From: Escherichia phage LAMP
Sequence record: MG673519.1
Length of the DNA: 64,000 bases
Strand: one strand, 5' to 3'
In this document: piece after piece, positions 31,941-56,925 of the stretch
Numbering within the stretch: position 1 is the first letter of the stretch
Layout: each line of letters begins with the position of its first letter
Notes under the pieces: generated by a model
What the model was told of the DNA's origin: nothing
The model's database searches: none
The model's input: only the letters and a program-made list of their open reading frames with translations
Translations under genes and position numbers: made by a program

Positions 31941-32422
31941 TTAGTGTGTATGCATCCAGTTTAACCCAATCTGACAATCAGAAGCCAGAGGACATTCCAT
32001 GTTCAAGTACTCACCAGCCTTCTTAACACAAAGCTCGGTGTACTCTTTGAGTTTCTGTACATCATTACGGTTCACTGAGAACTGGCCCTCATCGTGCATA
32101 TCAATTACCTTAGCACAACGAACTCCATCTTTCTCAATCCACTTGTTAAGGAACATCATAGCATATTTCATAACAACAGCACCAGCACATTGTAGGAGTG
32201 TGTTAAGGGCTTTATGAACCATAACCTTACCAGTGGCATCCCGTCTCATTGTAATCTTACGACCATCAACGCCAATCAAATACCCTTGAGCAGCTTTCTC
32301 TGTCATACGATCAATGAGGATTGCAATACAAGGATTCTCTGCCAAGAAGCGTGCTCGCATCACTGAACCTTCGTCAGCTCCACCACCTACGATTGAACCA
32401 AGCTTAGCATCACCTGCCCCAT
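31941..32422 (-). CDS. DNA polymerase (family A, T7 gp5-like), exon 2
   Basis: Frame open upstream of the annotated Met and encodes GAGDAKLG (motif B continuation); contains motif C VIDMHDE. Confidence 0.8.
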
Positions 32423-32726
32423 CAATAGTTCAAGCAAAGGCGCTACTCTTTGCTCCGTTCTCTTATGAACTGCTTACAGTTTCCTGTAAGATCGGACTAT
32501 ATCTTCATCTCCACCTTTACGTGCTGAGAGACAGGCGCTTCCGTAACACTTGTTACGTACTCCCTTCCGGGATAGTCTCTGAACTTTCCGTGACACAAAC
32601 TTTTCTACATAGATCATTGATGTTTATGTCACGGCTTAGCTGCTGATTGGCATATCTTTCGACTTAGCTTTCCAGCAATTCACCTGTTTTGCTTCTGCAC
32701 ATTTCTATGCAGTGAACCAATTATTT
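32423..32726 (-). mobile_element. group I intron (about 304 nt, no ORF) interrupting the DNA polymerase gene
   Basis: Exon 1 stops one codon after TFIYAFN; joining 32727 to 32422 restores NYGAGDAKLG; 5' exon ends in U, intron ends in G, GGUU near intron 5' end can pair with exon AACU. Confidence 0.7.
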
Positions 32727-34089
32727 AGTTAAAGGCATATATAAACGTCTTCGCATTATCACGAGTAGGAAGACCAGCAAGTTTCTGGTTGTGGGAGTGG
32801 ATATCACCTTCAAGAAGGATATCACGATACATAATAGCAGAAGCTAAACCACGTTCTGCCAGAGCTTTCTTAGCTGGATTATTCTCTTCGATTGCTTCAG
32901 CAAGCATATCCCTACACTCTTTAATGAGGTAGTGAGCGAGCATACGAAGTTCAAGTCCAGAACCATCATACCCTAAGAATACTTCTTTACCAGCGGGTAT
33001 GTAATATTTGTAAGCACCTACAGGCTTATCTTTCTTCCCCGGCTTACCTTTCTCGTAAATTACGTTAGTACCTTTTCGTATATAACAACCATCAGGAACA
33101 ACGTTAGTAATAACGAAAGGACGAGAGTGATCACTGTCTGAATTATAGTCAGACTCAAACAAACTGCGACACTCATGACCAAACAAACCACGGGAGGGAA
33201 TATTAACCACGATACGATGTTTGAATCGAAAAGTTGGCGTAGCGCAGCTGTTAGCTTCTGCCGAAAGTTTACCATCTTCGCGTTCCTTTGCTATGAGTCC
33301 ACTGATAAGACCTAGCCTGTGAGCCGCTACAACGCGCCTCTTAAGCAAACTTCCAACACTCCCTAGCTCGCCCCCTAACCCTTCTTCAAGAGTCTCCTCG
33401 AGGTTTGTAGGAGCTGTAGGCCACTTGTTTGAGGTAGCTAGTGCTATCTTAATCTCATCAAACGTGATAGGTCTACGTCGGTTAGGGTTTAAACCTAAAC
33501 CAAACACATAAGCCTTCATATAGTTCTTAGTCTTAAACCTAAAATGCTTCTCTAAGAACCTCCTAATATCTGCGTCAACCATCTCGGCTGTCTGCTTCTG
33601 TTTAGCATTACCTCGCATCCAAGCTGAATACCACGCTTGGTATGTTCCATACTTTCGTATATCTTTCTTGATTTCAAAAGTATTCCAAGGTTTCTTTGAT
33701 ACGTTAAACTCTGGAGGAAGAAAACCCTCATCCATAAGGGCTTCTTTAACTCGTGCATCTTTCGATGGGTCAAAGTCCACGTATTCAACACAGGTGAATG
33801 CTCCACCAATGTCTTCTCTCTTAAGGCCAACTCTATCACAATAGGCTTGAGGCCACTTCTGTAAAGCTCCAGACTTCTTAAATGGCTTCATATAAGTAGA
33901 GCCATCTAGTCTCATCTTAGGTAAGAGAGGGATCAGTTCTTTGTCGATATTAACAATAATCTCTTTAAGGAGGTGAACATACCACCGAGCATTTCTTCGG
34001 TTGAAACTCACTCCGTGCTTCGCTTGCTTAGAGATTATATCAGCGACAGTCATCTCTGTCAAAAATGGGAGAGCGTCCGGGTTGCTCAC
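32727..34089 (-). CDS. DNA polymerase (family A, T7 gp5-like), exon 1 (polymerase domain)
   Basis: Motif A GYDGSGLELRMLAH and motif B RDNAKTFIYAFN; colinear with T7 DNA polymerase from the end of its exonuclease domain. Confidence 0.85.
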
Positions 34090-34786: not shown

Positions 34787-34854
34787 AGTTATTCCCTAAG
34801 AAGTTTAGTTTGGTTTATATAAAAGAAAAGGCCACCCATTTGGGTAGCCTTATA

Positions 34855-35172
34855 TTACGATGAGCTTAAAGCTCCTTTGCGTGCTCCAGCTGCTTTTCCA
34901 GCTCGATCACCACTTTTGCCGCCGTTTGAACGGTTTGAGCTGACTGATTCAACACGTAAGTTGCTTGACGCATTAGAGCCTCCAGACTTGACAGCTCGTT
35001 TGTGTCCAACGTCTTTACCTCTGACAGCAGCTTTTCCATCGCGCTTTTCAACGATGCGACGTGCACGGTGGCGCTGAGCATCTCCGCTCTTGCTCCCAAT
35101 GCCTGTCTCACCACGGGCAATTGCGGTACGTCTTTCTTGTGCATAATCTCTCTTTCCTACATGGTCTGCCAT
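34855..35172 (-). CDS. highly basic Arg/Lys/Gly-rich protein
   Basis: ATG preceded by AAGGAG and by a TAATGTATA motif; a second long ORF (34866-35144) overlaps it in another frame. Confidence 0.4.
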   Translation of the reverse strand: MADHVGKRDYAQERRTAIARGETGIGSKSGDAQRHRARRIVEKRDGKAAVRGKDVGHKRAVKSGGSNASSNLRVESVSSNRSNGGKSGDRAGKAAGARKGALSSS

Positions 35173-35208
35173 TTAGAACTCCTTAATATATCAGTGTACA
35201 CTAAGGAG

Positions 35209-35217
35209 TATACATTA
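35209..35217 (-). promoter_or_regulatory. TAATGTATA motif (minus strand), candidate promoter
   Basis: Reverse complement of 9-mer 37 nt upstream of the 35172 start. Confidence 0.45.
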
Positions 35218-56849: not shown

Positions 56850-56925
56850 TGGTGCGCCCTACAGGATTTGAACCTGTAACCAATAGCTTAGAAGGCTACT
56901 GCTCTATCCATTGAGCTAAGAGCGC
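56850..56925 (-). tRNA. tRNA-Arg(UCU): tRNA-Arg, anticodon UCU, CCA encoded
   Basis: Hand-folded cloverleaf: 7-bp acceptor stem, D-arm GCTC/GAGC, anticodon loop CTTCTAA, 5-nt variable loop, T-arm ACAGG-TTCAAAT-CCTGT, discriminator A, CCA. Confidence 0.9.

Follow-up and report, generated by a model that had tools for sequence, protein, structure and literature searches.

Whether a short stretch of phage DNA codes for two proteins at once, or whether its second open reading frame (ORF) is a mere by-product of the first, is the question raised by a locus of Escherichia phage LAMP (sequence record MG673519.1), from which a stretch of 64,000 nucleotides (nt), hereafter the window, was analysed. 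Two ORFs are found at this locus, both on the minus strand: ORF1, which encodes a small and very basic protein, and ORF2, which starts 28 nt 3' of the ORF1 start, in the +1 frame, and lies wholly within ORF1 (279 of its 318 nt, 88%). The original prediction, made from the letters of the window, had described two ORFs in different frames of the same strand and had offered two explanations: either one of them is a compositional artefact or both are an overprinted gene pair. The arrangement is as described (the strand itself had not been named), and the pair is the explanation favoured in the clade to which the window belongs, on account of the avoidance of stop codons, the conserved ORF boundaries, the conservation of synonymous sites and the relaxation observed in lineages where ORF2 is broken; the weak ribosome-binding site of ORF2 stands on the other side.

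According to these data, ORF1 and ORF2 are probably (with a probability of about 0.7) a true overprinted gene pair specific to this clade, with ORF2 as the candidate overprinted gene. That the region is genuinely dual-coding is at least as probable, and that ORF2 is made as a separate protein of 92 amino acids (aa) from the ATG at 35144 is somewhat less probable than that. The source of the window is a phiEco32-like (Kuravirus-type) podophage of E. coli: the 1-kb region around the two ORFs shows 97% identity to the BASEL phages Bas92-94 and 90-96% to phiEco32, SU10 and other Kuravirus genomes.

ORF2 in the single sequence

Taken by itself, the window says little about ORF2. A stop codon can form in the +1 frame only where the second base of an ORF1 codon is T, and such codons make up no more than 12% of ORF1; because of this scarcity, the open +1 frame is only mildly unusual in the single sequence. 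At least 92 open +1 codons are obtained by chance in 6.8% of codon-order shuffles and in 10.8% of synonymous recodings drawn from the codon usage of the window. The significance of ORF2 comes only from comparative data.

These numbers agree with the explanation that ORF2 is an untranslated by-product of the composition of ORF1, which is rich in Gly, Ala, Arg, Lys and Ser and poor in T at position 2, and that it has stayed open through shared ancestry together with a gene-specific preference for Val and Ile codons ending in T or C. Under this explanation, a product rich in amphipathic helix can also arise cheaply, since the middle base of each +1 codon is the third position of an ORF1 codon.

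The GC content of the segment is another property that composition accounts for. The original prediction had remarked that the segment is richer in GC than its surroundings, and this is correct (0.50-0.53 against 0.31-0.42). By codon position, the GC content of ORF1 is 0.61 (position 1), 0.58 (position 2) and 0.34 (position 3). The excess is therefore located in positions 1 and 2, that is, in Gly, Ala and Arg codons, which identifies the amino-acid composition of ORF1 as its source rather than foreign DNA. A foreign GC island was considered and ruled out, given that the third-position value of 0.34 is like that of the rest of the phage. These ORF1 codons account for the GC richness, which is no independent evidence for a gene overlap.

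Comparative evidence for ORF2

The clade that includes the window was sampled with 12 lineages showing 64-88% ORF1 identity, in which the Kuraviruses were counted once; the nine added metagenomic lineages show 67-81%. The span of ORF2 is free of stop codons in 10 of these 12 lineages. Given the protein and the codon usage of the neighbouring genes, each lineage has a probability of 0.03-0.16 of showing no stop, and these values multiply to 1.6e-11. At conserved residues of the neighbouring genes, the codon identity to the window amounts to 0.33-0.43, compared with approximately 0.32-0.34 for clearly saturated pairs. Their synonymous sites are thus near saturation, and the lineages can be treated as nearly independent samples of synonymous codon choice.

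The lineage of the window was left out of the stop test, because it had been noticed precisely for being open. At-risk sites were defined as Val, Leu or Ile codons that precede a codon starting with a purine. In the remaining lineages, stop-making codons occupy 1 of 70 at-risk sites, versus 330 of 971 (34%) in the neighbouring genes (Fisher p 2.7e-11). The binomial probability that at least 9 of these 11 lineages are stop-free, with p = 0.10, is 4.6e-8, a result obtained despite the near saturation of synonymous sites and difficult to reconcile with a by-product of composition. When all codons with T at position 2 (Val, Ile, Leu and Phe) that precede a purine are considered, the third base is T or C in 97 of 99.

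The boundaries of ORF2 are conserved as well. Its start, an ATG formed from GAT TAT G (Tyr-Ala or Tyr-Asp in ORF1), is found at the same position and has been kept in 11 of 12 open lineages, and its stop is also at the same position in the clade (GCT TTA A, Ala-Leu-Ser in ORF1). Both frames are open and the limits of the embedded ORF are conserved, as expected for overprinted genes. Codon bias predicts neither the conserved start nor the conserved stop.

The two lineages with a broken ORF2 (L161 and L163) serve as controls. They carry four stops each, compared with neutral expectations of 2.0 and 2.55, and they lose the conservation of codons: the codon identity of L161 to the window is 0.34 in this gene and 0.32 in the neighbouring genes, and that of L163, for which there are no neighbouring genes for comparison, is 0.27. 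This behaviour of the broken lineages, with a neutral number of stops and no excess of codon conservation, is not anticipated if composition alone keeps the frame open. The DNA polymerase of L161 is 76% identical to that of the window, which makes L161 as near as several open lineages; distance is therefore not the cause of the difference between open and broken lineages. L161 also shows an endonuclease insertion beside its homologue of phiEco32 gp58 (the ORF1 gene), together with an altered ORF1 C-terminus.

Open lineages, on the other hand, show codon identities to the window of 0.45-0.56 in the ORF1 gene versus 0.33-0.43 in neighbouring genes (eight non-Kuravirus lineages; L095 was left out because it has too little neighbour data). 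For two Kuravirus sub-lineages, the values are 0.67-0.72 and 0.50-0.51, respectively. The identity of the amino acids encoded in the +1 frame is 0.46 between open pairs, compared with 0.32 in a null in which synonymous codons were permuted among sites (mean z 3.3), and 0.27 between open and broken pairs, the same as their null (0.27). As the +2 frame also gains in this permutation test (z 2.4), the test reveals site-specific synonymous conservation in general, and what singles out the +1 frame is the stop-codon evidence alone.

Finally, the helical character of the ORF2 product is maintained. Helix-forming residues are above a synonymous-recoding null in 12 of 12 open lineages, which codon bias does not predict, and Gly plus Pro are below it in 11 of 12. 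Both measures are reversed clearly in the broken lineage L163 and weakly in L161. Altogether, stop avoidance, codon identity, the permutation z and the invariant block described below give ORF2 a signature of selection on the embedded frame.

An invariant block within the overlap

A block of 47 nt within the overlap is invariant among 14 Kuravirus-like genomes, and no other run of 25 nt or more is invariant in a multi-genome alignment of approximately 3 kb. Variable columns amount to 4% at the block, compared with 25-35% in PhoH and DNA polymerase, and the proportion of synonymous differences (pS) in ORF1 codons 27-50 is 0/17. It is exactly at this block that the best-conserved part of ORF1 (KSGDAQRHRARRIVEK) overlaps with that of ORF2 (RAEMLSATVHVASLK), and dual coding would freeze such a stretch. 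In distant relatives, the codons of the block vary freely.

An invariant run of this kind, unique in the alignment, could also be a nucleic-acid element located in ORF1, such as an RNA structure, a site for protein binding or cleavage, or a replication or packaging signal, with the open +1 frame being incidental. The block holds an 8-nt palindrome (CGTGCACG), and homing-endonuclease genes lie beside the ORF1 gene in several relatives, so that a conserved DNA target is conceivable. Nevertheless, the block has no significant RNA fold (z -0.52) and no Rfam match, the search at E<=1 having returned nothing except noise at the terminator. In addition, the block is specific to Kuraviruses, while the avoidance of stops spans the whole 276-nt ORF2 and is also seen in lineages with different codons in the block; a local element does not explain why exactly the codons that make +1 stops are avoided. 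We regard an element of this type as very unlikely to be the explanation.

The predicted product of ORF2

The single-sequence AlphaFold2 model of the ORF2 product (mean predicted local distance difference test, pLDDT, 83.6) consists of two long antiparallel helices, residues 9-45 and 48-91, which form a two-helix hairpin. The comparison of this model with viral models by Foldseek yielded generic helical hairpins only. The tryptic peptides predicted for this protein are AEMLSATVHVASLK, TLDTNELSSLEALMR, QATYVLNQSAQTVQTAAK and VVIELEK.

Points against ORF2 and alternative explanations

Several observations weigh against a functional ORF2. The first concerns the wider family, which was sampled with 128 distinct homologous genes from phage genomes, IMG/VR and metagenomes, grouped into 53 clusters. 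The +1 frame is broken in 44 of these 53 lineages, and the nine open ones compare with 5.4 expected, as a by-product of composition would have it. Homologues with only one open frame, which the original prediction had named as the finding that would speak against a gene pair, thus form most of the wider family. However, 10 of the 12 lineages of the clade are open, and in the tree of ORF1 proteins, open +1 frames are not scattered but fall into two clades: the Kuraviruses with their relatives and a group of Pseudomonas phages. Family-wide breakage therefore marks ORF2 as an addition made in one clade, and inside that clade it is no refutation.

The second group of observations concerns the strength of the comparative signal. 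The lineages of the clade are not strictly independent, and synonymous sites beyond the 47-nt block are constrained only modestly. The naive ratio of non-synonymous to synonymous differences (pN/pS) of ORF2 is 1.2-2.6 among Kuraviruses, a measure that is confounded in overlapping frames. The N- and C-terminal parts of ORF2 change radically among these phages, and its identity is 66-75%, compared with 86-90% for ORF1. ORF2 has no match in Pfam, PHROG, NCBIfam or the Protein Data Bank (PDB), and no homologues elsewhere were found among 5.8e9 proteins, in which only two alternative-frame calls of the same locus appeared. The pN/pS above 1 and the missing homologues are likewise what the compositional explanation would predict.

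The third group concerns translation. Upstream of the ORF2 ATG there is only a weak sequence resembling a Shine-Dalgarno (SD) motif, AAAGAG, with a spacing of 3 nt, and it is absent in ECBP2-type Kuraviruses, which show AAACGTGATT. The proteomic study of SU10 searched annotated coding sequences (CDSs) only and offers no direct evidence for translation of ORF2. Two other entries to the ORF2 frame are possible: an internal ATG (Met22), located inside the invariant block, and a +1 frameshift.

The lack of a convincing SD sequence suits both the compositional explanation and a programmed +1 ribosomal frameshift from ORF1, which would produce a fusion of a short ORF1 N-terminus with the body of ORF2. 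For the frameshift it can also be said that several relatives have the +1 frame open from the ORF1 start or from further upstream, and that the ORF2 ATG comes after a rare Arg codon, AGA, and a stretch rich in purines. Against it, 11 of 12 open lineages share the position of this ATG, for which Tyr must be encoded by TAT before a codon starting with G, and this conservation makes the frameshift entry unlikely; moreover, the window and four further open lineages have a +1 stop just upstream of the ATG, which would confine the shift to about four codons, and no known shifty motif is present. Of the explanations considered here, frameshifting is given the lowest probability.

With respect to composition, a general dislike of codons ending in A does not account for the data either. 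At Leu72, a safe site because it is followed by a pyrimidine (CGT), TTA or CTA is used in 11 of 12 lineages and gives a conserved Tyr in ORF2, with the reservation, to be counted among the points against ORF2, that all 11 of these A-ending codons in a safe context come from one alignment column. That ORF2 is due to chance was our first reading, based on the shuffles, the family-wide breakage and the naive pN/pS above 1, and it was dropped after the tests at clade level. We now consider it improbable that ORF2 is an untranslated by-product of ORF1.

ORF1 is a conserved HNH-like gene

ORF1 is a real gene. It corresponds to an annotated CDS in Bas92 (Bas92_0041), phiEco32 (gp58) and SU10 (gp56), and it is a full-length member of phrog_4590 (PHROG match, E 1.2e-40), a family with no assigned function. 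ORF1 sequences extracted from close relatives are 95-100% identical, and tblastn over residues 1-83 gives 96-99%. The pN/pS of ORF1 among Kuraviruses is approximately 0.2. In SU10, gp56 has been detected by mass spectrometry with two peptides and a mass of 10.8 kDa (PMC4281155), and the mass computed for the product of the gp56 frame is 10,827 Da.

The search of 5.8 billion proteins returned 85 homologues of approximately 100 aa, with identities down to 45%, and tblastn located a homologue in 253 phage records. The hosts of this gene include Kuravirus, LUZ24-like Bruynogheviruses, Bjorn, UFV-P2, Grimontviridae, Lahexavirus, Vibrio and Photobacterium phages, and one cyanophage. In most of the annotated contexts inspected, the homologue is encoded in the replication module upstream of DNA polymerase, and in many phages it adjoins PhoH and DNA polymerase; in the LUZ24-like Bruynogheviruses, it lies between the two parts of the DNA polymerase.

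The alignment of 37 diverse homologues shows that H57, G65 and N80 are invariant and that G64 and N71-L72 are nearly so. The resulting pattern, V-D-H...GG..N...NL......N, is that of a degenerate HNH motif (beta-beta-alpha metal finger) lacking the zinc-binding cysteines, and its residues map onto two strands (53-57 and 72-76) and one helix (77-82) of the predicted structure. ORF1 has the residues that in HNH proteins serve as the catalytic His, at the end of strand 1, as the structural Asn and, within the helix, as the metal-binding Asn or His. The model of ORF1 finds some of its best structural matches in the Gme HNH nicking endonuclease (4h9d), the HNH protein of phage GVE2 (5h0o) and the catalytic domain of I-HmuI (1u3e), with which ORF1 shares a size of approximately 100 aa, a predicted strand-strand-helix core, the His...Asn...Asn series and the lack of a Cys4 zinc site.

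The assignment nonetheless stays below that of a curated HNH nuclease. The ORF1 protein of the window has no HNH match in Pfam or NCBIfam, including the profiles PF01844 and PF13392, and a profile search of the ORF1 family against PDB sequences gave no match. Among the 37 homologues, 15 match Pfam HNH and 13 match HNH_3 at E<=0.1, the best E being 2e-5, and one homologue has a precomputed PF13392 match. The acidic residue before the catalytic His (the 'DH' pair) is missing in the window and in all E. coli Kuraviruses, which show V-G-H, whereas most homologues show V-D-H. ORF1 is accordingly described as HNH-like and is not filed as a verified HNH nuclease, since it falls short of the Pfam thresholds and has no Asp in the DH pair. 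The Gly that replaces this Asp (35001-35006, ORF1 codons 56-57, G-H) may mean that the nuclease of the E. coli Kuraviruses is altered or inactive, and the same change turns a Thr into an Asp in ORF2.

From its motif, its fold matches and its synteny, we infer that the most likely role of ORF1 in the replication module is to bind DNA or to nick it. A free-standing homing endonuclease was also considered and is not favoured, given the fixed syntenic place of the gene beside DNA polymerase across distant phage groups. Homing-type endonuclease genes (HNH, HNH_3 and Endonuclease_7) are found in several relatives directly beside the gp58 homologue, and sometimes overlap its ends (Table 1).

The product names given to gp58 homologues in the records are diverse. 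Those of Ka1, Pra-JY27 and Pecta name an HNH-type protein or endonuclease, and 'cytidyltransferase' (SeKF_80) and 'putative restriction endonuclease' (pSal-SNUABM-01) are unlikely names. Other unlikely feature names, which may or may not belong to the gp58 homologue, occur within the matching 1-kb region: 'autotransporter adhesin' (EcoN5, CHD5UKE1 and pEC-N1203-2Af.1) and 'Cas8 protein' (Ptacy1532 and Ptacy1479).

The family of ORF1 and nicked phage genomes

The genomes of LUZ24/tf-like Pseudomonas phages carry nicks at the motif TACTRTGMC, and the nickase is still being sought (PMC3517423, PMC11780129). As HNH-like members of the replication module, gp58 and the proteins related to it are, based on their sequence, concrete candidates for the nickase of these genomes. 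In the window, TACTRTGMC has four matches compared with 2.05 expected; these are not exclusive to one strand and do not amount to a strand-biased enrichment, and a k-mer scan of the window detected no other strand-asymmetric over-represented 8-10-mer. The window thus gives no support for nicking, and it says nothing about a nickase role of the family in Pseudomonas phages. The hexamer ACTRTG, which is the core of the nick motif, is strongly depleted in the window (31 copies, compared with 72.6 +/- 8.8 expected from dinucleotide shuffles).

Layout and expression signals of the locus

The original prediction had called attention to a strong AAGGAG ribosome-binding site and to an upstream TAATGTATA, and both are present in front of ORF1 on the minus strand (Table 1). 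Related lineages have similar SD sequences in front of ORF1. What it had missed is that ORF1 is HNH-like and that TAATGTATA is the promoter motif of a phage sigma factor.

In phiEco32, the sequence tAATGTATAtA is common to three middle and three late promoters that depend on the sigma factor gp36, and one middle promoter has been placed between CDS 56 and CDS 57 of SU10, which is the position of TAATGTATA here (PMC4281155). Promoters of this type are recognised by the tAATGTATAtA motif located 6-8 nt upstream of the transcription start, and the exact TAATGTATA agrees with them in motif sequence and in its place between two genes. Downstream, the predicted intrinsic terminator begins 4 nt past the ORF1 stop codon. 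With its promoter motif, SD sequence and terminator, ORF1 looks like a self-contained middle transcription unit, and TAATGTATA is likely to be the middle promoter of this one-gene unit.

Exact copies of TAATGTATA are found at only five places in the window: 4147(+), 21635(+), 30100(-), 30172(+) and 35209(-). The divergent pair at approximately 30.1 kb, with its two copies 72 nt apart, probably marks the border between the middle genes of the minus strand and the late genes of the plus strand.

Table 1. Coordinates of the features discussed; positions refer to the window unless a locus (L) is named.
Feature	Position	Strand	Description
ORF1	34855..35172	-	105 aa, isoelectric point (pI) 11.5, mini HNH-like protein
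ORF2	34866..35144	-	92 aa, pI 6.8, +1 frame, candidate overprinted gene
HNH-like core of ORF1	34927..35016	-	residues 53-82, predicted strand-strand-helix
Invariant block	35045..35091		47 nt, invariant among 14 Kuravirus-like genomes
AAGGAG (SD of ORF1)	35184..35179	-	read from sequence; 6 nt before ATG
TAATGTATA	35217..35209	-	exact match; -10-like motif of phage-sigma (phiEco32 gp36) promoters
Predicted intrinsic terminator	34818..34851	-	consensus scan and sequence; 10-bp stem (6 G-C pairs), 4-nt loop, T-rich tail
+1 ORF of Pseudomonas phages	L014 2501-2783; L015 2514-2783; L020 2517-2768; L100; about 20 further loci		L015, Ka1_36; L020, UFV-P2 gp33; L100, tf-like
Homing-type endonuclease inserts	L011 2131-2511; L013 2041-2475; L161 2830-3321; L156 2841-3248		L011, Bas86_0049; L013, GAP52 gp060

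A possible origin of the pair

The following course of events is proposed for the pair. ORF1 would be the ancestral gene, with a +1 frame nearly stop-free by default because T is seldom the second base of its codons. This frame would have gained a start codon, formed from the TAT G of the Tyr-Ala of ORF1, in the ancestor from which the Kuravirus-like phages descend, and ORF2 would have arisen. From then on, selection would have kept ORF2 open and prone to form helices by limiting the synonymous codons of ORF1, and the DNA would have been frozen where the most conserved parts of both proteins coincide, giving rise to the invariant block of 47 nt.

In the present phages, the unit would be transcribed in the middle phase from a gp36-type promoter. 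ORF1 would be translated efficiently from AAGGAG to yield a very basic HNH-like protein that may bind DNA and perhaps nick it, and less of the ORF2 protein would be made, its translation starting at the ATG 28 nt further on. By analogy with embedded gene pairs, it can be speculated that the ORF2 product acts with or on ORF1.

A possible parallel case in Pseudomonas phages

The second clade in which the +1 frame of the HNH homologue is open is that of the LUZ24/tf/Bjorn/UFV-P2-like phages. Stop-making codons occupy 11 of 229 at-risk sites in this group, compared with 29% in neighbouring genes, and the synonymous sites of the clade are saturated. The third positions of the ORF1 homologue at residues 57-92 are 54% T and 7% A, versus background values of 25% and 15%. 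Through these T-rich third positions, the +1 product holds a hydrophobic segment of approximately 30 residues followed by basic residues, and no conserved start codon for the +1 frame was found in the clade.

The annotation of these genomes is inconsistent. The +1 ORF is annotated as 'membrane protein' in tf (gp29), UFV-P2 (gp33) and Ka1 (Ka1_36); both frames are annotated in Ka1, and the records of UFV-P2 and C1-14_Or lack an annotation of the HNH frame. It could be that two overprinting events took place independently in the ancestral mini-HNH gene, both using the +1 frame, giving a soluble hairpin in the Kuravirus-like phages and a small membrane protein in the Pseudomonas phages, a proposal we make tentatively and at slightly worse than even odds. 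If true, HNH genes of this kind, with little T in the second codon position, would be a place where de novo genes arise repeatedly. The nuclease might be the partner of the embedded proteins or their target.

Other features of the window

Two RNA features of the window lie outside this locus. A group I intron (32473-32736, minus strand; Rfam RF00028, 100.8 bits, E 6e-25) interrupts the DNA polymerase gene (31941-34089), whose exons appear as the ORFs 32725..34089 and 31941..32363. The insert is absent from the polymerase gene of Bas92, and at this site Bas93/94, PE006 and KBNP1711 have an insert that includes an endonuclease gene. A tRNA gene is located at 56853-56925 on the minus strand (Rfam RF00005, 73.6 bits).

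Significance and comparison with known systems

Genome annotation pipelines discard embedded ORFs, and the embedded ORF is annotated in none of the three Kuravirus records inspected (Bas92, phiEco32 and SU10). Should ORF2 be real, these records lack a conserved protein, and a second protein of this kind has been annotated inconsistently in the LUZ24-like phages, which include therapeutic candidates. The pair would also represent a clean natural case of de novo gene birth, with a datable origin, lineages of loss that act as internal controls, and a composition that permits it. ORF1, for its part, is an ordinary, previously uncharacterised HNH-like gene.

To our knowledge, long same-strand overlaps in tailed phages with double-stranded DNA (dsDNA) are known mainly from spanin genes, others being rarely reported. 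No description of the ORF1/ORF2 overlap was found in the literature searched, whose coverage was incomplete, so that this is no proof of absence. Rz/Rz1 of lambda and 18.5/18.7 of T7 are embedded spanin genes, and for Rz1 the start is documented, a lipoprotein signal is present, and translation and function have been proven. As in Rz/Rz1, one gene of the present pair lies wholly inside another, on the same strand and in the +1 frame, in a dsDNA phage and with unrelated products. Contrary to Rz/Rz1, neither product of the present pair is a lysis protein, the outer gene is HNH-like and belongs to the replication module, the overlap extends over 88% of it, and ORF2 is a predicted gene.

Overprinting is also exemplified by genes A/B/K and D/E of phiX174 and by the lysis gene of MS2. 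Like the overprinted genes of small viruses, ORF2 would be a new ORF placed in an older and widespread gene, present in one clade, devoid of homologues elsewhere and constraining the synonymous sites of its host gene; unlike them, it is found in a dsDNA podophage of approximately 70-77 kb and not in a tiny genome under strong size pressure. The overprinted genes of small phages and other viruses have been reviewed (PMC8227390). Thus, Rz/Rz1 is architecturally the closest known case, and in evolutionary terms the pair is nearer to the overprinted genes of small viruses.

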